Origin: a virus
Reading direction: 5' to 3' (one strand)
DNA: 56,135 nucleotides
IMG/VR virus record: IMGVR_UViG_3300045988_130618
Coordinates: 1-56,135 of that record
Shown here: positions 2,465 to 50,909 of the stretch, in pieces
Layout: every line of letters starts with the position of its first letter
Numbering within the stretch: the first letter of the stretch is position 1
The notes under the pieces: generated by a model
Database searches by the model: none
What the model was told of the DNA's origin: nothing
What the model saw: only the letters and a program-made list of their open reading frames with translations
Program-made: the position numbers and the translations under genes

Positions 2465-2498
2465 TAAAAAAGTTATCCACAATTTAATGTGGATAACT
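2465..2498 (-). terminator. Rho-independent terminator after recA; its stem arms are two inverted consensus DnaA boxes
   Basis: agttatccaca / tgtggataact gives an 11-bp stem with a 6-nt loop, followed by a T-run on the minus strand. TTATCCACA sits at 2473-2481 and TGTGGATAA at 2488-2496. Confidence 0.75.
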
Positions 2499-2516
2499 TT
2501 AGTAAATTGTTAATAA

Positions 2517-3536
2517 CTACTCTGCTTCTAACAGTGTCTGAATATCATTAGATAACTGCATATAAGCATCTGTATTATCTCTTAAATATTCAACCAATTT
2601 AGACTTGCCTTGAAATTTCTCTTTAACTTCCCCAGTTTCAGGTTCTACTAGTGTGAACCATGCACCAGCCTGATTGACAAGTCCTAACTTAATCGCAACA
2701 TCAACAGCATCAGAAATATAATCAATTCCTTCCAGATATTTCAGTGTATAGAATCCAACTTTTCTATCCGGTCTACATACTTTAGATTTAATAAGTGCTA
2801 CATTCACTATATTTCCAGCAGGATTCTCACAAGCTCTTGAAAGATTATTGCCTTTATCATCAATATAGTTTCCTTTTCTAAATTCAAGTCTTGTACTGCA
2901 AGCGTGTCTCCAAGCTCTTCCTCCTGTCGTTGTTGTTCCTCCGTACATACTATTCATATCATCTCGTACTTGATTTATTCCTATGAAGGCAGTCTGTGTT
3001 CTTGAAAGAACTGGAGTTATTTTCTTGCTAAATTCAGTTAGTGCCATACTTACCCCACCATATGTTCTTTCTCCTATCTGCTTTTCGTTTGCCTGCATTG
3101 ATACCATAGCACCTATACTATCTAATATACATAGGCTTATTTCTCCACTATCTATTAGTTCAATCATCATATTAAAGACTTCTTCTGCCCCCATACTATC
3201 TGGGTCAAGATAGATTATATCGTTACAATTCAATCCTAACTTAGTAGCCCAGCAAGAATCAAAAGTATGTTCAATATCTACAAATAACACTTTTTTATCT
3301 GGAAACATTCTTTGAGCATTTCCTGCTATATCAATAGCAGTAGTCGTCTTTCCACTTCCATCTGAACCATAAAACTCGGCTATTCTTCCAACCGGGATTC
3401 CACCATATGTCATATAATTTAATCTACAAGAGGAAAATGGAATCTTCTGCACTTCTTGAAAGTCTACACCTAAAGAAATGGCTCCTACTTTCATTTTCTT
3501 ATTTAAGTCTTTAATAATATTATCTAATTCTGACAT
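2517..3536 (-). CDS. recA: RecA-family recombinase
   Basis: Walker A GSDGSGKTT; Walker B-like LCILDSIGAM; RecA-type C-terminal domain (GLVNQAGAWFTL...GKSKLVEYLRDN); 339 aa. Confidence 0.85.
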   Translation of the reverse strand: MSELDNIIKDLNKKMKVGAISLGVDFQEVQKIPFSSCRLNYMTYGGIPVGRIAEFYGSDGSGKTTTAIDIAGNAQRMFPDKKVLFVDIEHTFDSCWATKLGLNCNDIIYLDPDSMGAEEVFNMMIELIDSGEISLCILDSIGAMVSMQANEKQIGERTYGGVSMALTEFSKKITPVLSRTQTAFIGINQVRDDMNSMYGGTTTTGGRAWRHACSTRLEFRKGNYIDDKGNNLSRACENPAGNIVNVALIKSKVCRPDRKVGFYTLKYLEGIDYISDAVDVAIKLGLVNQAGAWFTLVEPETGEVKEKFQGKSKLVEYLRDNTDAYMQLSNDIQTLLEAE

Positions 3537-6676: not shown

Positions 6677-6705
6677 ATTGTAATACATATATATAGAAAT
6701 GTCAA
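6677..6705 (-). promoter_or_regulatory. SigmaA-type promoter P2 (TTGACA-N17-TACAAT)
   Basis: Minus strand reads TTGACAtttctatatatatgtatTACAAT, followed by ATAATCAAGTTAAGAG. Confidence 0.75.
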
Positions 6706-7940: not shown

Positions 7941-8516
7941 TTATTGACTTAAACTCATTAACGAATAAGCTTCTTTTCTTAATTCTACATTATATTTAAA
8001 CTGACCTCTTATGGTAGCAGTTCTTGTCTTAGCACCTCTACTCTTGATACCTCTAGCCGTCATACAGCTATGTTCACCTTCTACAACTACTAACACATCT
8101 TCAGAACCTGTAGCTATCTGTATGATTTCAGCAATATCTGAACCTATCCTCTCCTGAAGCTGTAAACGCTTTCCAACCATATCTGCAATACGAGCAAATT
8201 TACTTAATCCTAATACTTTTCCATTAGGTATATATGCAATAGAAACTGTCATATTGTACATAAGCGCCATATGATGTTCACAATAACTGAAAATAGGTAT
8301 ATCCTGTACCACAACAAGGTCATCATTGTCTGTGTCAAAACATTTACAGAATTTTTCTGCTATTTCCTGATTTGTGTAATTCATTCCTTCAAATACTTCT
8401 TCATACATCTTAGCTACTCGCTTAGGTGTTTCTTTTAAGCCTTCTCTATATGGATTATCACCAAGAGCTTCTAATATTTCTCTAACTGCTTTTTCAATTT
8501 TTTCCTTATCAATCAT
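7941..8516 (-). CDS. folE: GTP cyclohydrolase I (FolE)
   Basis: [50 protein letters not shown] signatures; 191 aa. Confidence 0.9.
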
Positions 8517-8519
8517 TTT

Positions 8520-9155
8520 TTAAACTCCTCTCTTATTTGGATTCCATATAATCTTGTGTAACTGTACCTGTACACGGCAATTATTCATATGATGTTCCAA
8601 CATATAATTAACAATTTCTTCAGGTGTTATTTTTCCAAATACTGGACTAATAAACACTTGAGCTTTTGTTTCTGCAGACAACTTATAACAAACATCTAAA
8701 TCTTCTTTTGTACCAACAACGAACTTGATAACATCTGTAGGTCTTAAATAATCTATGTTATCTAATAACATCTTATCTTCCTGACCACTGGAAGGACACT
8801 TATAATCCATAGTGATGATAATATCAGAAAAAGTATAAGGTTCCACATTAATAGAACCATTTGTTTCTATATTGACTTCATATCCTTTATTTGTTAAATC
8901 CAATAAAAGTTCAAAAACACCTGGATGGATTAAGGGTTCTCCACCTGTGAGCGTTATTTTAGAACAACGAAATCCTTCTACCTTTTCTACAATTTCTTCA
9001 GCTGTCATTTCTGTATAATCGTTTCCTTCATACCCATAAGGTGTATCACAATATGAACATCTAAGGTTACATCCATATAAACGAATGAAGGTGGCAGGAA
9101 ATCCTGCCCTTATACCTTCTCCTTCTATGCTGTTAAATATTTCTACTACTTTCAT
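8520..9155 (-). CDS. queE: 7-carboxy-7-deazaguanine synthase (QueE, radical SAM)
   Basis: EIFNSIEGEG..FIRLYGCNLRCSYCDTPY is a QueE-type N-terminus with a CxxxCxxC cluster; 211 aa. Confidence 0.85.
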   Translation of the reverse strand: MKVVEIFNSIEGEGIRAGFPATFIRLYGCNLRCSYCDTPYGYEGNDYTEMTAEEIVEKVEGFRCSKITLTGGEPLIHPGVFELLLDLTNKGYEVNIETNGSINVEPYTFSDIIITMDYKCPSSGQEDKMLLDNIDYLRPTDVIKFVVGTKEDLDVCYKLSAETKAQVFISPVFGKITPEEIVNYMLEHHMNNCRVQVQLHKIIWNPNKRGV

Positions 9156-9521
9156 TTAATCCTCCTTGACACTAAATTCATATATAGCTATATTACCTTC
9201 GCTTTCCTGCACTTCAACCTTATAACAGTAGGTATCAATAGGACATATCTTATCAACCTCATCACATATCCATCTAGCTATATTCTCAGCCGTAGGATTA
9301 AAATCTACAACATCATTAATATACTTGTGGTCTAACTTATCCTGAACAAATTCTTTAATATGTTTAAAATCTACTAACATTCCATAATCTGTGAGCTTCT
9401 TGCCTTTGCAATGAACAGTTATTATCCAATTATGTCCATGTAAATTTGAACACTTACTGTCATAAGGTAACTTTAACTGATGGGCTCCTGCTATTTCCAT
9501 TCTTTTTGATACATAATACAT
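9156..9521 (-). CDS. queD: 6-carboxy-5,6,7,8-tetrahydropterin synthase (QueD)
   Basis: AGAHQL...KCSNLHGHNWIITV is the QueD/PTPS zinc-binding signature; 121 aa. Confidence 0.85.
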   Translation of the reverse strand: MYYVSKRMEIAGAHQLKLPYDSKCSNLHGHNWIITVHCKGKKLTDYGMLVDFKHIKEFVQDKLDHKYINDVVDFNPTAENIARWICDEVDKICPIDTYCYKVEVQESEGNIAIYEFSVKED

Positions 9522-10115: not shown

Positions 10116-10165
10116 AATATTAATCCTCCTTTTATTTTGTATATGTTATCTCTTAACTTGTTTAT

Positions 10166-10193
10166 ATTGTAACACATACAAGATAAAAGTCAA
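10166..10193 (-). promoter_or_regulatory. SigmaA-type promoter P3 (TTGACT-N16-TACAAT)
   Basis: Minus strand reads TTGACTtttatcttgtatgtgtTACAAT, followed by ATAAACAAGTTAAGAG. Confidence 0.65.
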
Positions 10194-11059: not shown

Positions 11060-11965
11060 CTAAAATAATTTTTTTCTATTGATACTGGAACCTTTATAAA
11101 CATAGTTATCTGCCCAATTTTTTAAATATATTAAGTTTGCTAACATTCTATATTTATAATCTGTTCTAACTAATTCTAACTCAATTCCAATACTTTGTAA
11201 ATACTTTTTTAATTGTTTTTCACCTAAATTATTAGATATATGATTTTTAAGATGTTGTTGTGAATCACTAACAGTTACTAATCCAAAAGGAGTTAATATA
11301 TTTCCATTAGCACCTATCATTATCCAACTTGTACTGTCTGCTGATGTAAATGGATATCTTTCCAATAATTTTAAAGACGTCATACCGAAAGCATGTGTTT
11401 TAACCTGTGGATTAGAACTTTTTTTAATTATAGTAAAACATTTATCAAACCAAATTTCTTTTTCTTTTGTTGAAGAATCAGTAGTTGCTGCTAAACCTAT
11501 ATATGGTATATGTTTTCCGTTAAAAGTTGTTTCTAACATTTGATGTAGATATTTCCAATCTTCCCTCCTATGAAAGATTGGTAATAATTTATCCGGACTC
11601 TTAACACGTTCCCTCATATAACAATAATTCTTCCAACTTAACTCTGGAGCTTCTAATATTTGTTCTTTTGTTTTAGGTTGTCCATAAATTCCAGGAATTT
11701 TATCAACTTGTGCAAATATGGTTAAATGTTCATCAATACTATTAATATATTCAATATATTCATTAACATCTAATTCAATATTTCGGGTATATACAGTATA
11801 AGCTCCTGAATCTATAAATAATTTTCCATGTACTTCCTCTTGACACCAACGAGAGATATTTTTACGGTCATTAACTTGTGACTGAAGTCTACATAAATTA
11901 TTTTTCAACATAAAAGATTCACAGTCTTCATTTTGTGTGCCAGCAAAATATAAATCAAAACTCAT
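11060..11965 (-). CDS. dpdA: DpdA-like (tRNA-guanine transglycosylase superfamily) DNA 7-deazaguanine transglycosylase candidate
   Basis: GKLFIDSGAYTVY motif typical of phage DpdA-type proteins. 301 aa. Sits next to folE/queD/queE and polA. Confidence 0.6.
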   Translation of the reverse strand: MSFDLYFAGTQNEDCESFMLKNNLCRLQSQVNDRKNISRWCQEEVHGKLFIDSGAYTVYTRNIELDVNEYIEYINSIDEHLTIFAQVDKIPGIYGQPKTKEQILEAPELSWKNYCYMRERVKSPDKLLPIFHRREDWKYLHQMLETTFNGKHIPYIGLAATTDSSTKEKEIWFDKCFTIIKKSSNPQVKTHAFGMTSLKLLERYPFTSADSTSWIMIGANGNILTPFGLVTVSDSQQHLKNHISNNLGEKQLKKYLQSIGIELELVRTDYKYRMLANLIYLKNWADNYVYKGSSINRKKLF

Positions 11966-14227
11966 TTATTCTACCTCAATACTTTCTCCGTACCAATTAT
12001 AAGAAACTTCACAATCACATTTAAAAGGTAATTCTATTAAATGTGATGGAGCCATCCTCATAAGATAGGATAATCTTTCTTTAACTTCTTTAGCGTTTTC
12101 TTTTGGACATTCCCCAATAACTTCATCATGAACACATATAAGTAAATGGAAATCAAGCTCTTTCATTCTTTCGTCATTATTAATGGAAATCATTGCTAAT
12201 TTTGCCATATCCGCGGCAGAACCTTGTACTCTCGCATTTACACATTGTCTTTCAGCTTGTGCTATAAATCCACCATTATCTTTAATCTTAATTCCTTGAG
12301 TTAAGGCACTTTGAATTATATCATTTTTCTTTTTCCATCCAAAAGCCTTTTGAAGTTGTTTGATGTAGTTGTCTTTCACTTTCTTAGGAACTTCTGTAGA
12401 TACCTCACTTCCAAATGCTAGTGGGTCAAAGTTAGTTACTTTTCCACTATAACTGAATTCATAAGGTTCTAACAACATATCTTTTAGATGTCTACGCCTT
12501 CCCCAAGCTGTTGTTACATAACCTTTAGTTCTTGCCATATTCTGTGAATCTTTAATAAACTGTGCTAATTCAGGAAAGGCTTTAAGAACAGCATCATATA
12601 TACCTTGTGCCTCTTTTGTAGATACTCCTAGTTGTTCACCTATAGAAGGAATCTGTCTTCCATATAAAATACCTAATACAATACTTTTAGCTTGTGTTCT
12701 TCTTTCCTTACCTGCCAAATTAACTGTTCCATCTGGTCTAAACTCTTTACATTCTTCATAAGGTTTATGAAAAGCTAAAGAAGCTATTGTGGCATATATA
12801 TCTTTACCATTCATAAAAGCTTCCTTCATTTTTCTATCTTTAGAAAGATGTGCTGTAACCATTGGCTCTTGCTGACTATAATCTCCACCTATAAGTACAT
12901 ACCCATCTTGAGCTTTAAACATCTGTCTAATCTCTTTGTTGTGTGAAGGGATATTCTGGAGATTCGGGTCTTGTGAACTGAATCTTCCTGTTTTTGCTCC
13001 ATACTGATTATAGCTTGCATGTACTCTTCCATCAGACAATGCAATTTCAGGCATTTTATCAATGTAAGTTCCTAACAGCTTATCAACATTTCTCATTCCC
13101 AAGATAGCCTCACAGATATTCTTTTCCTTGCCTTGTGCAAAATGTTTTAAAATATCTTCACCTGTTCCTCTAGGTGCTTTTTTATCCGGACTTTCCAATC
13201 CTAATATATCATAGAATAATATTGCAAGCTGAGTTGGGCTTGATAATGATATAGGGTCTGACAACTTATTATCCGGATGTTTCATCTTGTAATTATCAAT
13301 TTCATCCTTATACATTGCTATTGCTTCATCAGCCTGCTTTTGTCTTTCTTCTCTTAACTTATGATATTTTTCGTGTAAATTACTACATATATCAAAGTCA
13401 AGACATACACCTCTATCTTCCATATCTGCTACAACTGAAATCAAAGGCATTTCAATATTCCAAAATACATTATAAGGTCCAGCTAATACTCTTCTATTAA
13501 GAATTGTTTGTTGATATTTATACAATTCATAGGTCTTTATAGCATCACCTGCCGCATATAAATATCCTGTTGAGATTGGAATATTATCAAAAGTAACTCC
13601 TTTAAATAAACTATCAAATGTCAAAGATTCTGTATCTTTGCTATTACAGTATTTAAGATGCAAGTCTTTCAGTCTGTGACTTTCTTCTTCATCTATACAA
13701 TATGCCGCTAACATTGTATCCCAATAAGGCTTGAAATCAATTCCAAGTGTCTTTCTACATACACGTATATCATACTTTGCATTATGAAAAATCCATCTAA
13801 TATCCTTATGAAACTCTTTCATAATCTTTGAAACAGTTTCTTCGTTCATCTGTTCCTTTGTTCTTGCACCTGTGATATATGATTTATGATTGATTGGAAT
13901 ATATGCCGCTTTCTGTCCTGGAGTATAAATACATCCACCAACTATATCTACAAGTAATGGATTTAATGCATTTGTTTCTGTATCTAATGCACCCTCCCCA
14001 ACTTGCTTCATCTCTTTCATATATTCATATAACTGGTCAGGTTCTCTAATAAGAATATAATCATCTTTATGTATTGCTAATTTCTGATTGGCAATAGCAA
14101 CTATAGATTGTATTTGAGCGGCTAGATTATTTCCGCCGCCCCTAATACTTGTTCTTGTTGTTATTGTTTTGGATTTTTTGATTATATTCTTATCATTGCT
14201 TTTTGGTCTTGCAAATGATAATGCCAT
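11966..14227 (-). CDS. polA: Family A DNA polymerase (Pol I-like) with a 3'-5' exonuclease domain
   Basis: Exo I ALDTETNAL; motif A GGDYSQQEP; motif B RRTQAKSIVLGILYG; motif C CVHDEV; 753 aa. Confidence 0.95.
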   Translation of the reverse strand: MALSFARPKSNDKNIIKKSKTITTRTSIRGGGNNLAAQIQSIVAIANQKLAIHKDDYILIREPDQLYEYMKEMKQVGEGALDTETNALNPLLVDIVGGCIYTPGQKAAYIPINHKSYITGARTKEQMNEETVSKIMKEFHKDIRWIFHNAKYDIRVCRKTLGIDFKPYWDTMLAAYCIDEEESHRLKDLHLKYCNSKDTESLTFDSLFKGVTFDNIPISTGYLYAAGDAIKTYELYKYQQTILNRRVLAGPYNVFWNIEMPLISVVADMEDRGVCLDFDICSNLHEKYHKLREERQKQADEAIAMYKDEIDNYKMKHPDNKLSDPISLSSPTQLAILFYDILGLESPDKKAPRGTGEDILKHFAQGKEKNICEAILGMRNVDKLLGTYIDKMPEIALSDGRVHASYNQYGAKTGRFSSQDPNLQNIPSHNKEIRQMFKAQDGYVLIGGDYSQQEPMVTAHLSKDRKMKEAFMNGKDIYATIASLAFHKPYEECKEFRPDGTVNLAGKERRTQAKSIVLGILYGRQIPSIGEQLGVSTKEAQGIYDAVLKAFPELAQFIKDSQNMARTKGYVTTAWGRRRHLKDMLLEPYEFSYSGKVTNFDPLAFGSEVSTEVPKKVKDNYIKQLQKAFGWKKKNDIIQSALTQGIKIKDNGGFIAQAERQCVNARVQGSAADMAKLAMISINNDERMKELDFHLLICVHDEVIGECPKENAKEVKERLSYLMRMAPSHLIELPFKCDCEVSYNWYGESIEVE

Positions 14228-15360: not shown

Positions 15361-15521
15361 AGTATTTAACAGTATTCCCAGCTTTATTCCTGTCACTATC
15401 CCAATCACCGCATTTTGCTATATCAGGTGCTTTACTTCTTTTTGACTGCCAGGATAGAAATTTAATTAAGGATGAAAACCTAACAAAATCATTCTATTTT
15501 ACCATTCGGGGAAATGGTAAA

Positions 15522-15593
15522 CAGCCCTTGTTGGATTCGAACCAACGAATGCAGGAATCAAAATCCTGTGCCTTACCACTTGGTGAAAAGGCT
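15522..15593 (-). tRNA. tRNA-Gln (anticodon UUG)
   Basis: Acceptor AGCCTTT/AAGGGCT; anticodon stem CAGGA/TCCTG with loop TTTTGAT; T-arm GTTGG-TTCGAAT-CCAAC. Very similar to bacterial tRNA-Gln. No CCA is encoded. Confidence 0.9.
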
Positions 15594-15650
15594 ATAATAT
15601 ATCAATACTACATTCACCTCAACCTACCTCAATTCCTCGTATTGATATAT

Positions 15651-15909: not shown

Positions 15910-15938
15910 ATTGTAATACATAAAAGTAAAAATGTCAA
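15910..15938 (-). promoter_or_regulatory. SigmaA-type promoter P4 (TTGACA-N17-TACAAT)
   Basis: Minus strand reads TTGACAtttttacttttatgtatTACAAT, followed by ATAGCTACAAGTTAAGAAATAC. Confidence 0.75.
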
Positions 15939-15945
15939 TAGTTTT

Positions 15946-17949
15946 TCAAAAAATTATTTTGCATCTTAGAAATTCTTCTTGCAAGTCATTTATATCCCGA
16001 TTATCTGAGTATACAAGTTCTTTTATTATCTTTCCGTGTACATTCTTTCTAAATCTTTCTGTTGCTTTTCTTCCTGCTTCATCAGGGTCAAATGCAAGAA
16101 TATATTCACGAACTGGTAACTTATTTAATATTTCATACTGCTTTTTATTTCCTGTTCCTATCATAGCCATAGCAGGCTTATTATATTTCCAGCAGGTCAA
16201 ACAATTTAAGAATGATTCAGTGATATAAGCCGTTCTATACATTCCAGTAACGAATCTATATCCTTGATATATTGGTTTATCTTCTCCTCTTGGCAATCTG
16301 AAAAACTTGTTTTTAACACTTCGGCTTGCAATAAATCTAACTGTACCATACAAATCTGCAACTGGGAATGTAATCTCATCTCTTGCTTTGTCATATCCTA
16401 TATCAAACCTTTCTATAATTTCATCAGTCAATCCTCTTTCATACATATAAGGATGTATATACCTATATTTGTCTAATTCTTCTTCTGTAATAACTGTTTT
16501 ATCTCCTTCTTCCAAGTCACTTTTCTTTTCATATTCATTTCCTTGTCCAGCTTTTCCCATTTCTCCGGATTTTCCTTTTGATGCTGTTTCAATGCCTTTA
16601 CAAATTCCTCTGGATAAATTGATTTTCCTTGCATTAAATCCCTCCATTATATTTGGTCTTGTTTCAATTTCAACAGTATTAAATCTTTTTATAAGCCATC
16701 TTTTTCCAAATTTTCCTTCATCTTGATATCCATATAATTCGGATATCATTTCCTCTATTGTACCCGCCCAGCCACAAGCAAAGCAATTTCCTGTTAAAAT
16801 ATAACCGTCAAGTGCGAATGAATGTGTGGATGTTTGACAGCAATACACATCTTCATATCTGTCTGTATATTCAACAGAAACTACTTTATGTCTTAATCTC
16901 CCATCATAGGATGATTTATTTTTAATTCCTTTAGCAGTTATAAAAAATGATTGTGGAACATTATTTTTAACGATTCGTAAAGTATATGCATTAGTATCAT
17001 TTTTTACAACCAAACATCCTCTGTTGCCTGCTTTAATATTAGAAGTTCCAATATTAAAAGTTGCTATGCCCAAGTGAACAAAAATATCTCTTATCTTTAA
17101 AATATCTTCTTTTTTTGCAGAATATAAGGATAAACCTCCATTACTTTCATTTCCATCGGCTACAAAATAACCAGCTAAAAAACCCAATAAGTATTCATCG
17201 GTTTCTATATTCATGTCTGGAACTTTTTTTAAATTTCTATATGAACTAAAACATATAGAATCATATTCTATTCCATTTCCTGCTATTGATTTTTTAATAT
17301 TACCTAAATGCTCAAAATATTTAGATATTCCTAAATCTGATTTATTATAAAAGAAACATCTATATTGATACTTTCTATGATGACCAGTCATACAACCATC
17401 ACCATAACAAAATCCGTGTACAATCCCATCTATAGAGGGAATTAGTTCTTCATTTACTTTTGGTAAAATTTTATCTAAATACATCCAATTTTTTAAATCT
17501 TTTGTTTGTATTTTGTTTTTGCGATTTTTCACAATCCACTCATGTTCTGGAGTTGTATAGATTATACGTTCTTTTTCATTTGCAGTTAGTGTAAGTTTCA
17601 TCAGTCGTTGTTTTCCGTAGTTTCTAAATATTACGGTTTCCCAATTACCATTTCCATTTATAATATCAACAGCCTTGTCACACAAACTGGATATTGATTT
17701 TACCCCACTTCTAGTAATGACTTTTGTGTCTGCCTGAAAACAGTGACATTTATCAATTTCTCCATTTACACCAAAAGACGGCTTTCGTTCTTGTCCATTC
17801 TTGTGAAAAGGACAATTCGTCTGCACATTTTCTCCGTTGTTTCTGAAAATATGAAATCTATCTACCCCGTGTTGTGCAAGGTCAAATTTAAGCATATCTA
17901 AGACAGATTGGGTATCAGATTGTATAATTGTATCTTGTAGCTTTATCAA
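15946..17949 (-). CDS. dnaG: DnaG-type DNA primase (zinc finger + TOPRIM) interrupted by an intein; TTG start
   Basis: CPFHKNGQERKPSFGVN...KCH[intein]CFACGWAG zinc finger. C-terminal TOPRIM (AYITESFLNCL...AFDPDEAGRKA). GAGGAGG RBS lies 8 nt before the TTG. Confidence 0.85.
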   Translation of the reverse strand: MIKLQDTIIQSDTQSVLDMLKFDLAQHGVDRFHIFRNNGENVQTNCPFHKNGQERKPSFGVNGEIDKCHCFQADTKVITRSGVKSISSLCDKAVDIINGNGNWETVIFRNYGKQRLMKLTLTANEKERIIYTTPEHEWIVKNRKNKIQTKDLKNWMYLDKILPKVNEELIPSIDGIVHGFCYGDGCMTGHHRKYQYRCFFYNKSDLGISKYFEHLGNIKKSIAGNGIEYDSICFSSYRNLKKVPDMNIETDEYLLGFLAGYFVADGNESNGGLSLYSAKKEDILKIRDIFVHLGIATFNIGTSNIKAGNRGCLVVKNDTNAYTLRIVKNNVPQSFFITAKGIKNKSSYDGRLRHKVVSVEYTDRYEDVYCCQTSTHSFALDGYILTGNCFACGWAGTIEEMISELYGYQDEGKFGKRWLIKRFNTVEIETRPNIMEGFNARKINLSRGICKGIETASKGKSGEMGKAGQGNEYEKKSDLEEGDKTVITEEELDKYRYIHPYMYERGLTDEIIERFDIGYDKARDEITFPVADLYGTVRFIASRSVKNKFFRLPRGEDKPIYQGYRFVTGMYRTAYITESFLNCLTCWKYNKPAMAMIGTGNKKQYEILNKLPVREYILAFDPDEAGRKATERFRKNVHGKIIKELVYSDNRDINDLQEEFLRCKIIF
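16786..17742 (-). mobile_element. Intein (319 aa) with a double-motif LAGLIDADG homing endonuclease, inserted in the primase zinc finger
   Basis: Block A CFQADTKVITRSG; block B TTPEHEW; LAGLIDADG motifs IVHGFCYGDGC and LLGFLAGYFVADGN; C-terminus HSFALDGYILTGN followed by +1 Cys. The exteins rejoin to KCH-CFACGWAG. Confidence 0.8.
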
Positions 17950-20485: not shown

Positions 20486-21274
20486 TTAAAATTTCATAAG
20501 TGTTCCATTATCCCTCATTTGACGTATTTCTTCTCTACCCTCTTTTGTTGTTGTATCATTAAGTATCAAATCACTTGATACAGTTTTTTTCTTATGAATA
20601 TCTACTAACCATTCAGGTGGTGTTATATATTTATAGTTTCTTTGATAACTTGTATCTATACATTTTTTAATTGTTGTATAATCTTTTCCTGCTATTTTTG
20701 CTATATTAGCTTCTATAGCTCCTTTTGTTTTTATTTTCATTTCTTCTAAAAACTGTTCAATTAATTCTATACTTTCATCATCTTCTATATCATTTTTTAA
20801 ACAAGAATCTATAACAAGTTTTGAAATTGTTGAACTTTTTTTAGAATTTTTTTTATCTATATTATTTTCTATAGTTTTATTTCTATTATTTATATCTATA
20901 TTATTATGTAAAGAATTTTGACACCCCCCTGTCAAATTTTTTGACACCCCCCTGTCAAATTTTTTGACACCCCCCTGTAAAGAATCTTGACATCCTGTCA
21001 AATTAACACGATATGAACAAAACTTGATATTATTTTTAAATTCTTCTTTTTTTATAATTAATCCTTCATTAACAAGTTTATTAAGGGTTGTCATAATTGT
21101 TTGTCTTGAACATCCACACCATGCACATAAATAACTAGCACTGCCAGTAAACTCACAATCTTCAGTCTGTGAGAAACCATATATTATTGCATATACAAGT
21201 AGAGCATTACCTTTTAATCTTAATTCATTGAGCATCCAACCTTGTATTGTGATAAAATTTTCATTTTTAATCAT
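20486..21274 (-). CDS. Replication initiator / replisome organizer with an N-terminal wHTH
   Basis: N-terminus ITIQGWMLNELRLKGNALLVYAIIYGF...SRQTIMTTLNKLVNEGLI. Internal DNA iterons. Located upstream of the loader and helicase genes. Confidence 0.55.
   Translation of the reverse strand: MIKNENFITIQGWMLNELRLKGNALLVYAIIYGFSQTEDCEFTGSASYLCAWCGCSRQTIMTTLNKLVNEGLIIKKEEFKNNIKFCSYRVNLTGCQDSLQGGVKKFDRGVSKNLTGGCQNSLHNNIDINNRNKTIENNIDKKNSKKSSTISKLVIDSCLKNDIEDDESIELIEQFLEEMKIKTKGAIEANIAKIAGKDYTTIKKCIDTSYQRNYKYITPPEWLVDIHKKKTVSSDLILNDTTTKEGREEIRQMRDNGTLMKF
20907..21004. repeat. Iteron array (about four 23-bp units) inside the initiator gene; candidate origin of replication
   Basis: ttgacacccccctgtcaaatttt occurs at 20918-20940 and 20941-20963 (identical). 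Diverged copies lie at 20964-20986 and 20987-21004. Confidence 0.7.
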
Positions 21275-22056: not shown

Positions 22057-22461
22057 TTACTTGTCCTCCTTTTTCTTTGTAATTCTTAAGGTCTGTGTAA
22101 CTGTGTCAATCTTAGCTTTTGATAATGCATTTATATTAAAATCTCCGTTATATACCAATTTTTCAAGAGCATCCTCATCTATATACTCTTTTGTTTTTAT
22201 AACAGAATGAAGCAAAGCTCCATCAAGATTTTCTTTAATAATTTCTATTGCCAAATCTTCATTAAGACTTGATTTTGTTGTGGTTGTAACTGTAGCAGTA
22301 TAATTATCACTGCTGGCAGTAGTTATGCCTTTTTCATTAAAATACTGCTTAATTAAGTTACCTGCTTCAGTGTTAGATTTTTTTAACTTATTTTCTAAGT
22401 CTTTATTCTGCTTATATGAATCTATACAAGCAGAAATATTAAAGCCATTTCTTCTACTCAT
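22057..22461 (-). CDS. Hypothetical protein
   Basis: 134-aa ORF packed in the operon. Confidence 0.55.
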   Translation of the reverse strand: MSRRNGFNISACIDSYKQNKDLENKLKKSNTEAGNLIKQYFNEKGITTASSDNYTATVTTTTKSSLNEDLAIEIIKENLDGALLHSVIKTKEYIDEDALEKLVYNGDFNINALSKAKIDTVTQTLRITKKKEDK

Positions 22462-22762
22462 TATTCTTTAACTCCTTATTCTTCATTATTCTAGTTCCAC
22501 GTCTACCCCATTGATAATAGGCATTAAATTCTGCCATACATCCTTTATATTCAGACTGTAACTTATTCTTAAAATCTTCAAGTTGCTGTATAGCTTCCAT
22601 TGTGAAAAATCTAGTACCTCTATTATCTGTGGTGTAAGTAGGTAGTTTAAGACCTAAAGGCTTTGTATAATTTGGGTCTTCATACCACTTATACCATCTT
22701 TTTAAAGTAGTTGTAGATATGTCAAGAATCTGTGCTGTTCTTGCTGTGGAAAACTTTTCCAT
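22454..22762 (-). CDS. HTH (MerR/excisionase-type) DNA-binding protein
   Basis: FSTARTAQILDISTTTLKRWYKWY. Start moved to the ATG at 22762, 8 nt after GGGAGG. Confidence 0.5.
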   Translation of the reverse strand: MEKFSTARTAQILDISTTTLKRWYKWYEDPNYTKPLGLKLPTYTTDNRGTRFFTMEAIQQLEDFKNKLQSEYKGCMAEFNAYYQWGRRGTRIMKNKELKNNE

Positions 22763-22790
22763 TGGTTTCACCTCCCTTCATATATATTGT

Positions 22791-24581: not shown

Positions 24582-24610
24582 ATTGTAATACATACAAACA
24601 TATATGTCAA
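24582..24610 (-). promoter_or_regulatory. SigmaA-type promoter P6 (TTGACA-N17-TACAAT)
   Basis: Minus strand reads TTGACAtatatgtttgtatgtatTACAAT. Confidence 0.75.
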
Positions 24611-30038: not shown

Positions 30039-30067
30039 ATTATAATACAGTTTACATTTTTTGTAAA
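30039..30067 (-). promoter_or_regulatory. SigmaA-type promoter P9 upstream of the lysis cassette (TTTACA-N17-TATAAT)
   Basis: Minus strand reads TTTACAaaaaatgtaaactgtatTATAAT. Confidence 0.6.
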
Positions 30068-40585: not shown

Positions 40586-41446
40586 TTATTCCTGATGTTC
40601 TCCATTATACCAGAATATTGTATCAGGTGTGACTGCCTTAGTGCCATAGTAGAAGAACATCTCAACTGCCATAGCCTCTGAAAGAGGGATTCTCTCAGCT
40701 GTATAAGGTACACTTCTAACTGGCTGTGCAATAGATTCATCCATCATAATTTCAAACTTGACACCTGATGGAAGTCTGTTAGAACTGAAACACTTAACAC
40801 CATGAAACATAACGAACTCTTCTGTTGTTGTGTCTACGTTAGTATTTACCACTGTATCAAGATACATTCTCATATCCGAATATGTCGTTGGGTCAAATGT
40901 GATAGACATCATAGACCTGTCAATTCCGTCAATATATTCATTCTTAGTTGTTTCAAGCTGTAATATAGCCGCTTCTACGATAGCTTCTATATTAGTTACA
41001 GTTGAAGCTGGCTTGAACTGTGTACCTGCTGTCTTACCTTCTGCAAAGAACTTTTCGTCAAGCTCTGCAATCATTCTCCTAGTGTGATTAGCACTTCTCT
41101 TAGCAATAAGTCCGTCAACACCTAAAAGACGAATATCCTTCTGCTGAATTTCTTCAACAAATTCCTTATCCTGGTCAATAGGAACTGTTACTGTCTTACC
41201 TTTTACGGCATCACCTTTATTAGCACTTCTAGCTGTTCCATAATCCTTAGATGTAGCATTAGCAAATCTCTTTGCTTCTACTGTACCTGCTAATGGGTCA
41301 CCTGATAAGTCTGTGTTCTTAATCTTAGTGCTGATAGTACCTTTCTGTACATTAGCAATTACACCATCATATGCTTCCTTTAAAAGCATCTTTCCTGTTG
41401 GGTCAAGTAATACATTTAAAGATTGAATTCTTGTTGTATCTGCCAT
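40586..41446 (-). CDS. Major capsid protein
   Basis: 286-aa ORF directly after the scaffold gene, in a highly expressed context with a strong RBS. Confidence 0.7.
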   Translation of the reverse strand: MADTTRIQSLNVLLDPTGKMLLKEAYDGVIANVQKGTISTKIKNTDLSGDPLAGTVEAKRFANATSKDYGTARSANKGDAVKGKTVTVPIDQDKEFVEEIQQKDIRLLGVDGLIAKRSANHTRRMIAELDEKFFAEGKTAGTQFKPASTVTNIEAIVEAAILQLETTKNEYIDGIDRSMMSITFDPTTYSDMRMYLDTVVNTNVDTTTEEFVMFHGVKCFSSNRLPSGVKFEIMMDESIAQPVRSVPYTAERIPLSEAMAVEMFFYYGTKAVTPDTIFWYNGEHQE

Positions 41447-41464: not shown

Positions 41465-42112
41465 CTACCAGATTACTGGTGTATTATTATCATTAATATT
41501 TTCTTCTGGAGGCTGTCCATCAGATACCTTTCCTGAAGACTTACCACCGAACTGCGGCTTTGTATCTGGCTTTGGCTTATCTTCTTCCTGCTTAGCAAAT
41601 GCATCTGGGTCATTCTGTGTATAAGCACTTACAAAATCGTCAAAGCCTAAAATAACATCACCTTCCATTGGAAGATTCTTATTTAATGCCTGTGTTAAAA
41701 AGGCATTCTTTGCTGATTTACTTGAAAACTTTAAATCACCAACCTTTTCCTTAATAGCATACTCATAAGCCTGCTTATCAAGAGCTTTCTGATAGTCTGT
41801 CTTAGCATTGTCATACTTGGTCTGTAAGGTATCGAACTGTGTCTGCAAAGTATTAAGTTTCTCTGCATCAGCACCAGCATTCTTGAGCTTTTCCTGTAAA
41901 TCTTTCAGGTCTGTATCTCTCTGCTGAATGTCTGTGTCATACTTATTTTTATAAGTATCACGTTCACCTGTTACTTTTTCCAGCTTATCATTAAGACCTT
42001 TAACTTCTGCAATAGTCTTATAGTTTTCAACAACTGCCTTGTCAAATTCTTCTTTCTTGTCTGCTGGAACTTCAAGTCCAAAGGACTTTAAGATTTCATA
42101 AATGTTTTTCAT
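41465..42112 (-). CDS. Scaffolding protein (Phage GP20-like)
   Basis: MKNIYEILKSFGLEVPADKKEEFDKAV... plus a long coiled coil and a charged C-terminus. Confidence 0.7.
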   Translation of the reverse strand: MKNIYEILKSFGLEVPADKKEEFDKAVVENYKTIAEVKGLNDKLEKVTGERDTYKNKYDTDIQQRDTDLKDLQEKLKNAGADAEKLNTLQTQFDTLQTKYDNAKTDYQKALDKQAYEYAIKEKVGDLKFSSKSAKNAFLTQALNKNLPMEGDVILGFDDFVSAYTQNDPDAFAKQEEDKPKPDTKPQFGGKSSGKVSDGQPPEENINDNNTPVIW

Positions 42113-42190
42113 AGAATTTTTACCTCACTTTTTATAATCTAAAATTATTTTATAGTCCACTTTCTGGACTATGGATTATTTACATTCTAT

Positions 42191-42219
42191 ATTATACACA
42201 AGTTATCAACACTTGTAAA
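42191..42219 (-). promoter_or_regulatory. SigmaA-type promoter P11 for the scaffold-capsid operon (TTTACA-N17-TATAAT)
   Basis: Minus strand reads TTTACAagtgttgataacttgtgTATAAT. Two DnaA-box-like 9-mers overlap the -10 and the spacer. Confidence 0.55.
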
Positions 42220-42371
42220 GTAGTTATCAACAAGTTATACACAAAATTATCAACAATTTTGAGTTATCAACAATAATTGTGCATAACTTATACACATAAT
42301 ACACAAAGTTATCAACATAGTTAATAGTTATCAACAAATATATAAGTTATTCACATAAATTTTGTTGATAA
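42192..42371. promoter_or_regulatory. Array of 12 DnaA-box-like 9-mers (TTATNCACA / TTATCAACA) in 180 bp
   Basis: Perfect TTATNCACA at 42192, 42235, 42278 (inverted), 42288 and 42347. TTATCAACA at 42203, 42224, 42247, 42264, 42309, 42328 and 42363 (inverted). Confidence 0.8.
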
Positions 42372-42401
42372 CTTATTGGAAAAAGACTTGACATTTTCCA
42401 A

Positions 42402-42440
42402 TAAAAATATAAGTGCCTATCCCACTAAGAATAGGCACTT
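42402..42440 (-). terminator. Rho-independent terminator after the minor head protein gene
   Basis: aagtgcctat / ataggcactt gives a 10-bp stem with a 10-nt loop, then ATATTTTT on the minus strand. Confidence 0.65.
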
Positions 42441-42445
42441 TATTA

Positions 42446-43564
42446 TTATGGTTTACTTTGTTTTCCTTGATAACCTGGAACATATGCTCTATCATATCTC
42501 TTTTTTAATTGAGCTTGTTCTGCTACATATCTATATTGTTTTTGTATAGCAGTTAGTTCTGATTTTTCCTTTTTAAAATCTATATCAGCTTTATTTAAAG
42601 CTATTATTTCATCTTTTTTGTATCTCATTTTAGTTTCCAGTTGTCGCATAATCTGACTAGCTTCATAACGTGTTACGTCTTTATCACCTATTGTTATAGA
42701 TTCCTTACTATAATCTTTCATTTGTTCCAAATCTTTCTGAGTATAACCTTTAGGTGATACACCTAATATGATATATGATATTCCGTGATGACAATTACAT
42801 GTTCCTATCTTACGCTTTAAATTGTTATTAATAGATTCATACTTAGCTATAGAATATTGTTTGCCTTGATATGGAAGATGGTCATCTGCACATAAGCTGT
42901 GAGCATCTATTTCTATTCCATCCGCTCCATACTGTGAAGCACTTTCTTTTCTAACACCTGCATTTACTTGCCTAACACCTTCTAAAATATTCATTCTGGA
43001 GGCACTATCTAGTCTACGTGTATGTCCACTAGCATATTTCACTCTTAAGCCTTCATTAGCTTTTTGCTTTAATATATCACGTATAGCAGAATTATAATCC
43101 TGTACTCCCATAGTTACACTTGTTATAGCTGTATCAATTAACTCTCTATAATTATCTTGTATAGATGTTGTATTAGACATATTAAGAAATGTTCCAGCAG
43201 TTAATTGCTTTATAGATTGTATATAGTTTTGTATTGTTATATTTTTAGAAAAAGGGACTTGCTTTATACCTCTTGCTTGATATAAATAAGCTACATCTCC
43301 ATATTCTTCAAATCCACTTCTATCATATAACTCATATATTTCATTTAATGCCAATTTTGTCTGTTTAGATAATTCCTGATTAATTTCATCTATATTCTGT
43401 CCCATAATAGCAAATTGTTCTAATCTATGTAGATTAGAAGCAGATAGTTGTCCTATCTGCCTAATCTGCTTTGCCATTAAAGTTATATACTTAGTGGTAA
43501 CAAGTTCAAATCTATTAGAAATAGTATAAGCTATATCTGTTAATTCCTGAGGTGTTAATGTCAT
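42446..43564 (-). CDS. Minor head protein (SPP1 gp7 / Mu F-like head morphogenesis)
   Basis: 372-aa ORF directly after the portal gene, the canonical position. Confidence 0.55.
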   Translation of the reverse strand: MTLTPQELTDIAYTISNRFELVTTKYITLMAKQIRQIGQLSASNLHRLEQFAIMGQNIDEINQELSKQTKLALNEIYELYDRSGFEEYGDVAYLYQARGIKQVPFSKNITIQNYIQSIKQLTAGTFLNMSNTTSIQDNYRELIDTAITSVTMGVQDYNSAIRDILKQKANEGLRVKYASGHTRRLDSASRMNILEGVRQVNAGVRKESASQYGADGIEIDAHSLCADDHLPYQGKQYSIAKYESINNNLKRKIGTCNCHHGISYIILGVSPKGYTQKDLEQMKDYSKESITIGDKDVTRYEASQIMRQLETKMRYKKDEIIALNKADIDFKKEKSELTAIQKQYRYVAEQAQLKKRYDRAYVPGYQGKQSKP

Positions 43565-49906: not shown

Positions 49907-50066
49907 CTTCTGTATTCTCCTTTTCTTCCCATAATTTTTTATGGTTATTTTCTGCTTGATATTTTCTCCAGCATATTGCACCCATACCTAATTCAATAGC
50001 TTGTGGACTTCTTAATTTTCTTCCACATCTTTTACAAGTTGTTTGCTTTAATTCAGTATCTGACAT
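49899..50066 (-). CDS. 55-aa DUF6011-like zinc-ribbon protein (not in the ORF track)
   Basis: MSDTELKQTTCKRCGRKLRSPQAIELGMGAICW. The ATG overlaps the sigma gene stop (TAATG). Confidence 0.55.
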   Translation of the reverse strand: MSDTELKQTTCKRCGRKLRSPQAIELGMGAICWRKYQAENNHKKLWEEKENTEDE

Positions 50067-50569
50067 TATCCTACCTCCAACTTCTTTTTTATTTGAGTTA
50101 AAAGACGACTTATATATGATTGACTATAATGTAATTGTTTAGATATTTCATCCTGTGTAAATCCTAACATACATAATCTTACAATCTGTAATTGGCTATC
50201 ATTTAAAACATCTTCCAAATTATATGGTATAATTTCATCATAAGCTGTTAACCCATTAGTTATAAGCTCACTCCTAGAAAATATATCACCTTGTTCATTA
50301 TGTATTGGTTCATCTAATGAACACAATGTATCACATCTTCTCCTTTGTGACATATTCCTTCTACATTCTGCCTTATATTCATTATCCATAACAATAACTG
50401 CATAAGTAGCAAATTTTGAATTTTTAGCTTCATCATAATGTATAGCCGCCTTACATAATCCTAAGGCTAATATATCATAATATAAATCAATATCCAGATT
50501 TTTCTGTTGTATAAACCAATATATTAAATTATGGTTATCTGTTACAAGTCTTTCCTGTTCTTTTGTCAT
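50066..50569 (-). CDS. Sigma-70 family sigma factor (group 3, SigF/G-like)
   Basis: Region 2 with KFATYAVIVMDNEYKAECRR (compare the F[ST]TYAV motif). Region 4 HTH LQIVRLCMLGFTQDEISKQLHYSQSYISRLL; 167 aa. Confidence 0.8.
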   Translation of the reverse strand: MTKEQERLVTDNHNLIYWFIQQKNLDIDLYYDILALGLCKAAIHYDEAKNSKFATYAVIVMDNEYKAECRRNMSQRRRCDTLCSLDEPIHNEQGDIFSRSELITNGLTAYDEIIPYNLEDVLNDSQLQIVRLCMLGFTQDEISKQLHYSQSYISRLLTQIKKKLEVG

Positions 50570-50880: not shown

Positions 50881-50909
50881 ATTGTAATACATACATATAG
50901 AAATGTCAA
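50881..50909 (-). promoter_or_regulatory. SigmaA-type promoter P7 (TTGACA-N17-TACAAT)
   Basis: Minus strand reads TTGACAtttctatatgtatgtatTACAAT. Confidence 0.75.

Follow-up and report, generated by a model that had tools for sequence, protein, structure and literature searches.

A conserved array of DnaA-box-like sites on the scaffold/capsid promoter of a metagenomic phage and its relatives

A dense array of 12 DnaA-box-like sites lies on and upstream of the promoter for the scaffold and capsid genes of a metagenomic phage that belongs to an uncultured gut family, and in every relative that we fetched (~25 loci) the array and the promoter occupied the same position. The boxes are strongly enriched, conserved across lineages and held in a fixed register with the promoter. 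Judging from sequence comparison, we put the chances about even that host DnaA binds the array and regulates the scaffold/capsid promoter.

Genome context and layout of the array

The window, by which we mean the whole stretch of DNA analysed, is IMG/VR record IMGVR_UViG_3300045988_130618 (56,135 bp, 30.7% GC), and its end is a 52-bp direct repeat of its start, which identifies it as a circularly assembled complete genome of ~56.08 kb. All of its genes are on the minus strand. The head and packaging genes comprise small and large terminase, an SPP1-type portal, an SPP1 gp7-like minor head protein and a scaffold, and the lysis genes a holin and a glucosaminidase/CW_7 endolysin. Replication is represented by an HTH_36 initiator, a DnaC/IstB-like loader, DnaB, an intein-containing DnaG and a family-A polymerase (PolA), with SSB, beta clamp, clamp loader, RecA and an SNF2 helicase as further replication genes; no integrase was found among the ORFs scanned. 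The intein that splits the DnaG-type primase (15946-17949) carries a LAGLIDADG homing-endonuclease domain, and a single tRNA-Gln (UUG) gene, at 15521-15594 on the minus strand, sits within a 474-bp non-coding gap. Cultured phages are at best distant, the portals of Clostridioides and Faecalibacterium phages reaching no more than 35% identity to that of the window. Megablast and blastn searches of the array region against cultured phages returned no relative and only short, box-only matches in microviruses, and the only bacterial-genome match, from one scan of genome contigs, was a 7-kb contig binned to an uncultured Clostridia MAG.

The features of the array region are as follows.

42446..43564, minus strand: SPP1 gp7-like minor head protein gene (phrog_581, E=3e-53; PF06152), directly upstream of the array
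42411..42440, minus strand: intrinsic terminator after the minor-head gene, with a 13-bp stem and a T-run
42192..42371, no strand assigned: array of 12 DnaA-box-like 9-mers, five TTATNCACA and seven TTATCAACA, within 180 bp
42192, 42235, 42278 (minus), 42288, 42347: perfect TTATNCACA boxes
42203, 42224, 42247, 42264, 42309, 42328, 42363 (minus): one-mismatch TTATCAACA boxes
42192..42255, minus strand: promoter-proximal phased block of five same-orientation boxes (42192, 42203, 42224, 42235, 42247)
42191..42219, minus strand: sigmaA/sigma70-type promoter TTTACA-N17-TATAAT toward scaffold and capsid, matching 11 of 12 consensus positions
42152..42172, minus strand: stem-loop of the predicted 5' leader (AGTCCA-GAAAG-TGGACT), with an invariant ATTTTAG after it
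41465..42112, minus strand: head scaffolding protein gene, first downstream of the promoter (phrog_194, E=8e-18; PF06810 in homologues)
40586..41446, minus strand: putative major capsid protein gene, assigned by position and a weak PF25209 match in a homologue; the protein itself had no PHROG match

Ten of the 12 boxes read TTATNNACA on the plus strand and TGTNNATAA on the coding (minus) strand, those at 42278 and 42363 being inverted, and an extended GTTATNNACA core is present in 9 of 12. Start-to-start spacings across the array are 11, 21, 11, 12, 17, 14, 10, 21, 19, 19 and 16 bp. A preliminary description of this DNA had listed the same 12 coordinates, every one of which held on recount, and had pointed to the extended core in most boxes and to repeated 11- and 21-bp spacings, both of which recur among the computed distances. 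That description had also proposed comparing the boxes with shuffled controls, and the enrichment proved clear. Genome-wide, TTATNCACA occurs 14 times against 5.2 expected and TTATCAACA 10 times against 1.6 expected (100 dinucleotide shuffles, none of which reached the observed number in either case), and the 180 bp of the array hold half of all such boxes in the 56-kb genome. Shuffles of the 333-bp intergenic region itself (dinucleotide, n=5000) held 0.10 boxes on average and 2 at most, as compared with 12 in the real sequence, and the Poisson probability of at least 12 boxes in the 180 bp of the array is 2e-26. A functionless pile-up of AT-rich words, which a genome of only 30.7% GC might have suggested, was thus refuted by the shuffles, as well as by the retention of the element across ~25 related loci and by the difference in column variation between boxes and spacers described below, and we regard its probability as negligible.

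The intergenic region spans 42113-42445 (333 bp, the gap size first described) between the minor-head gene and the scaffold/capsid genes, and on the coding strand the order is minor-head gene, terminator, array, promoter, leader, scaffold gene and capsid gene. The terminator insulates the scaffold/capsid operon, which must therefore depend on its own promoter. The best promoter-like site in the region is TTTACA-17-TATAAT at 42219-42191, the promoter that the preliminary description had named, with one box (42203) filling its spacer and another (42192) overlapping its -10, as that description had also noted; the boxes at 42224, 42235 and 42247 lie just upstream of the -35. A DnaA-regulated promoter is expected to be of the housekeeping-sigma type and to have boxes on or next to its -35, spacer or -10, as is the case here. 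Within the proximal block the start-to-start distances are 11, 21, 11 and 12 bp and the within-pair spacers 2-3 bp.

The scaffold leader, as judged from the position of the -10, would be ~70 nt long. Its stem of 6 bp, closed by a GAAAG or GAAAA loop, is conserved in seven lineages (alignment A1), with 42/42 cells paired and compensatory changes in 5/6 pairs; its covariation score was reached by 0/500 shuffles, and the stem-loop is present in the minimum-free-energy fold. An Rfam search of the leader and array gave no family match, only sub-threshold chance matches.

Elsewhere in the window, at least six sites of a second promoter type, cTTGACAttt..TATGTATTACAATata with conserved spacer sequence, precede the replication and early gene blocks and probably make up the early promoter set of the phage. 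The non-early lysis promoter has the same hexamers and spacing as the scaffold/capsid promoter, and a palindrome, TTTACAaaaaaTGTAAA, that overlaps its -35 may be the operator of some other regulator.

2416-2444, 6677-6705, ~10150-10180, 15910-15938, 24582-24610, 50881-50909, all minus strand: early-class promoter sites
30039-30067, minus strand: lysis promoter TTTACA-N17-TATAAT, before the endolysin and holin genes, without DnaA boxes
2472..2517, no strand assigned: second, small box cluster, formed by the inverted pair AAGTTATCCACA-attaaa-TGTGGATAACTT and a further GTTATTAACA

The small cluster sits just upstream of the early-class promoter at 2444-2416, and its perfect inverted pair (2472-2497) doubles as the terminator hairpin after recA. 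Terminator hairpins of this kind, with stems of inverted perfect DnaA boxes (AAGTTATCCACA-loop-TGTGGATAACTT) ahead of a T-run, recur across the family; in four relatives (L003, 5149-5170; L004; L007; L027) the terminator of the upstream gene is an inverted DnaA-box pair, which in L004, L007 and L027 stands at the distal end of the array.

Conservation in relatives and recurrence in other phages

Relatives were reached through a protein database and a promoter DNA pattern. The minor-head protein has hundreds of metagenomic homologues on ~55-kb contigs; a pattern scan of IMG/VR with this protein alone gave no match. The protein-based set comprised seven loci, six with minor-head proteins 47-67% identical to that of the window (L002-L007, two of which share the same protein) and one at 97% (L001), and the promoter pattern yielded 17 loci from IMG/VR; a remote relative (L027/L127) was likewise found by DNA pattern. 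The contig of L001 ends (5278) inside the array, probably as an assembly break caused by the repeats. Exactly one box cluster was found per locus in L002-L007, the 17 IMG/VR loci and L027/L127, always in the gap between the minor-head and scaffold genes. The preliminary description had proposed checking the array for conservation in related phages, and it is conserved.

Relatives have between 6 and 12 boxes each; lineages differ in the distal layout, and the sequence between boxes cannot be aligned across them. What is kept is the promoter (TTTACA or TTGTAA with TATAAT or TATACT), with its spacer occupied by a box and its -10 by a box or one-mismatch box. The five-box proximal layout is common to the window, L003, L007 and an L007-like IMG/VR group, whereas in L002, L004, L005 and L027 the spacer and -10 boxes are kept and the arrangement upstream of the -35 differs; in L004 the box over the -10 is a one-mismatch box only. 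Same-orientation pairs 2-3 bp apart (42192/42203, 42224/42235 and 42235/42247 in the window) are also present in most relatives. In one closely related subgroup, 1/49 columns varied at fixed box positions as compared with 9/43 in the spacers (Fisher p=0.005).

Perfect TTATCCACA boxes occur in several relatives, and 54 boxes taken from six diverse relatives give the frequency matrix A-A-G-TTAT-[C/A/T]-[C/A]-ACA, the set holding 11 perfect TTATCCACA, 15 TTATACACA and 16 TTATCAACA. The remote relative, at 37-39% GC and with the same synteny, has seven array boxes, six of them TTATCCACA and one TTATACACA.

Some relatives (L002, 5151-5699; L007, 6454-6738; L020; L023; L024) have an insertion of one or two small antisense genes, under an early-class promoter, that separates the minor-head gene from the array. 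All that is left of such a promoter in the window is a -35 remnant (CTTGACATTTTCC) at 42387-42399 on the plus strand.

A double box, TGTGGATAA-NN-TGTGNATAAT, was found at 120 sites in 117 IMG/VR stretches with GC contents from 0.29 to 0.64; by rough estimate only a handful would be expected by chance for 18 specified bases, and many of the 117 stretches are related to one another. Annotation of the downstream gene in representative loci showed three or more unrelated phage groups with double or multiple DnaA boxes ahead of a terminase or capsid gene. In the L060 (/L070) group, 6-8 boxes in most members and 3 in one lie directly upstream of terS; in the L047 (/L100) group, 5 boxes do so; and in the L077/L117 (/L055) group, three tandem boxes precede a scaffold-like protein and then the major head protein. 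The boxes of L120 precede a replication initiator gene. Among cultured phages, blastn gave no relatives for the box regions of L060 and L077. Two cultured phages carry unannotated boxes, with a double box AAGTTATCCACAgagTTATCCACA in Lactococcus phage 949 (L143, 2507-2530; record 13319-13360) and an inverted pair in Streptomyces phage LukeCage (L144, 2505-2537).

The binding protein and the question of an origin

The array has the sequence features expected of a DnaA-box cluster, namely several 9-mers that match TTATNCACA or accepted one-mismatch variants of it (five perfect and seven others), and same-orientation pairs 2-3 bp apart. Variation among the boxes is confined to positions 5 and 6, and the E. 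coli consensus TTATNCACA and the Thermoanaerobacter tengcongensis consensus TTATCNACA together cover it. Against this, TTATCAACA, the commonest box of the window array, is a non-consensus box in E. coli. T. tengcongensis, of the class Clostridia, has the consensus TTATCNACA and an oriC with 12 boxes, of which boxes 9-12 overlap the dnaA promoter (PMC1888806). Using ChIP-seq in E. coli, Stringer et al. 2024 found in vivo DnaA binding almost only at box pairs 2 or 3 bp apart, the bound sites typically having gag or aag before TTATCCACA (PMC11317965), and the array boxes share both this spacing and the AAG flank.

Pfam scans of ~50 ORFs detected no DnaA domain in the phage, and when DnaA sequences were compared by phmmer with the six-frame translation, no DnaA or domain IV came up below E=2. 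The window does encode, at 7941-9521 and 11060-11965, GTP cyclohydrolase I (FolE), a radical-SAM QueE-like protein, QueD (PTPS) and a DpdA-like queuine/tRNA-ribosyltransferase homologue (phrog_887). A FolE/QueE/QueD/DpdA set is typical of phages that replace DNA guanine by a 7-deazaguanine derivative. From this gene content, the guanines of the phage DNA may be so modified, and such a modification could alter the contacts of DnaA to the G-rich strand of the boxes.

The main rival to DnaA is a different regulator, either a phage protein that activates or represses the head operon or some further host factor, for which the boxes would be operators that resemble or mimic DnaA boxes; a phage regulator of this kind was among the three options that the preliminary description had offered without choosing one. 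Several observations leave room for such a protein. Many small ORFs have no recognisable domain and could include an unrecognised DNA-binding protein, the AAG flank and the preference for TTATCAACA could mean a specificity slightly off that of DnaA, and the phage encodes the following candidates.

50066-50569: sigma-like factor gene
22454-22771: weak HTH proteins

However, the motif stays anchored on the universal DnaA consensus, without lineage drift, in relatives at 47% minor-head identity and as far out as the remote L027, its direct-repeat spacing of 2-3 bp is typical of DnaA, and boxes precede head or packaging genes in unrelated groups with GC contents from 0.29 to 0.48. A universal host factor would account for this recurrence more simply than a series of lineage-specific phage regulators. 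Moreover, no cognate gene adjoins the array in the window, where flanking regulator genes are lacking, although some relatives carry their small antisense genes there and many ORFs are unannotated. Timing argues in the same direction. The scaffold promoter differs from the early class but is just as near to the host consensus, so that host RNA polymerase should fire on it in the incoming genome unless something already present blocks it. Whatever represses such a near-consensus sigmaA promoter on injected DNA has to be there ahead of all phage proteins, which favors DnaA, whereas a repressor made by the phage would be absent at injection. We consider a regulator other than DnaA less likely than DnaA, if still the strongest competitor.

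The box cluster resembles oriC, a second, DnaA-dependent replication origin has also to be considered, and SPP1 offers an analogy. SPP1 has a second origin in a late non-coding region, and its portal and gp7 families are shared with the window phage. The phage has, on the other hand, its own initiator, iterons, AT-rich stretch, DnaC-like loader, DnaB, DnaG and PolA, and the iterons have a sequence unrelated to the boxes.

20907-21004: 23-bp iterons TTGACAGGGGGGTGTCAAAAAAT, 3-4 copies, within the HTH_36 initiator gene (20486-21274) and followed by an AT-rich stretch

Iterons inside an initiator gene and followed by an AT-rich stretch are a classic phage origin arrangement, and those at 20907-21004 are likely the true replication origin. 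The array, for its part, lacks the AT-rich unwinding element and the DnaA-trios (as in Firmicutes) of an oriC-like site. In the window and four relatives, neither strand has as many as four TA[AG] trios in a row, and no AT-rich unwinding stretch by the array stands apart from the 70-87% AT background, 30-bp windows ranging from 0.60 to 0.87 AT with no separate block. Cumulative GC skew is monotonic, with no inflection, in a genome in which all genes are on one strand and transcription dominates the skew. Reading the array instead as an iteron origin for the phage's own initiator, of the lambda O or SPP1 G38P type, was rejected because TTGACAGGGGGGTGTCAAAAAAT shares nothing with AAGTTATNNACA. 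The preliminary description had located these iterons, which do exist within the initiator gene, and had reasoned that they make a plain origin at the array less likely. This reasoning is sound, and the second origin that the description had nonetheless offered as an option is disfavored by the missing trios, the missing AT stretch and the complete initiator, iteron and helicase-loader module of the phage itself; we give it a very small probability.

Other candidates were tried and rejected. A partition centromere (parC/parS) would have head genes as its neighbours, and no partition ATPase was found among the ORFs scanned; a pac site and operators of Spo0A, LexA, CodY or ParB are unfit in position, neighbours or sequence.

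A model for the array and its relation to known systems

If DnaA is the binder, we infer that its binding most likely represses, given where the boxes stand, and that titration would relieve the repression. Pre-existing cellular DnaA would fill the spacer and -10 boxes and would oligomerise along the phased upstream boxes, stabilising the occlusion and so governing the access of RNA polymerase. The phage would then replicate with its own replisome, each genome copy adding ~12 boxes, until the rising number of copies out-titrated the limited DnaA pool and the promoter was released. The E. coli pool is ~1000-2000 DnaA molecules per cell. The output of head proteins, the most abundant products, would thereby be coupled to phage DNA replication and, as a by-product, DnaA would be drawn away from the host origin. 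DnaA is able to activate promoters too, and the lysis promoter at 30067-30039, which has no boxes, means that repression through boxes would not extend to every non-early promoter of the phage. The full proposal, in which host DnaA serves as a copy-number-sensitive timer for head and packaging genes that evolved independently in several lineages and also stops host initiation, we consider possible and hold only tentatively.

The array might alternatively act mainly as a DnaA sponge for host takeover, by sequestration or datA-like inactivation, with its overlap of the promoter incidental. Its 12 boxes are comparable in number to the DnaA-titrating clusters of the E. coli and B. subtilis chromosomes, and it would be amplified along with phage copy number. 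A pure sponge would not, however, need boxes in register with the -35 and -10, and this register is the most conserved part of the element; we find this explanation improbable as the main function; sponge function could hold alongside promoter control. The preliminary description had combined both in a DnaA sensor or sponge acting on late gene expression. This option best fits the comparative evidence of conservation, locking to the promoter, degeneracy and spacing, and within it the identity of DnaA as the binder is suggested by the sequence of the boxes.

Only in a few model systems is it understood how structural genes are held back by phages that depend on host RNA polymerase. Should the binder be DnaA, the array would be a simple, previously undescribed device in which the host initiator is the repressor and phage copy number the inducer, and one short DNA element would link phage replication, late transcription and host replication arrest. 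The presence of the same boxes before head and terminase genes in unrelated metagenomic groups means that the principle may be widespread, and for annotation it follows that clusters of DnaA boxes in phages should not automatically be called origins. A literature search that took in only a small part of the subscription journals returned no published account of DnaA boxes at phage late promoters or ahead of terminase genes.

Among cultured phages, the double box of Lactococcus phage 949 is the same extended box as in the window array and has a 3-bp spacer. Unlike the array, the 949 group and LukeCage have two boxes only, in ~1-kb non-coding regions between gene blocks, with no visible head-gene promoter beneath. 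Bacterial promoters under DnaA-box control include the autoregulated dnaA promoter. That of T. tengcongensis resembles the array in its close TTATC/NNACA-type 9-mers that overlap a housekeeping-sigma promoter, in its 12 boxes and in its variable consensus position 6 (PMC1888806). The array differs in that its promoter is a phage promoter for scaffold and capsid, has neither an adjacent dnaA gene nor an unwinding element, and is only predicted to bind DnaA. Chromosomal DnaA-titrating loci are represented by E. coli datA and the DnaA-box clusters of B. subtilis. Like the array, these are dense, non-origin groups of boxes that could lower free DnaA, but they are chromosomal and single-copy, whereas the phage array would reach hundreds of copies and is joined to a promoter.

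In T5-like phages, the injection-stop region has ~8 conserved DnaA or DnaA-like boxes, including TTATCAACA and TTATTAACA, with pairs 3 bp apart, and was argued not to be an origin (bioRxiv 10.1101/866236). Those boxes differ from the array in that they lie in an untranslated terminal repeat of phages with a Gram-negative host, are proposed to arrest DNA injection at the membrane, and are associated with no late promoter. Late expression is tied to replication through a replication protein in certain other phages. In T4, the sliding clamp activates late transcription. The late transcription of phage Mu likewise uses the beta clamp (PMC12867686). The likeness of these systems to the model proposed here is functional only, as the clamp is a mobile activator, whereas the array would work through the titration of an initiator that acts as a repressor.
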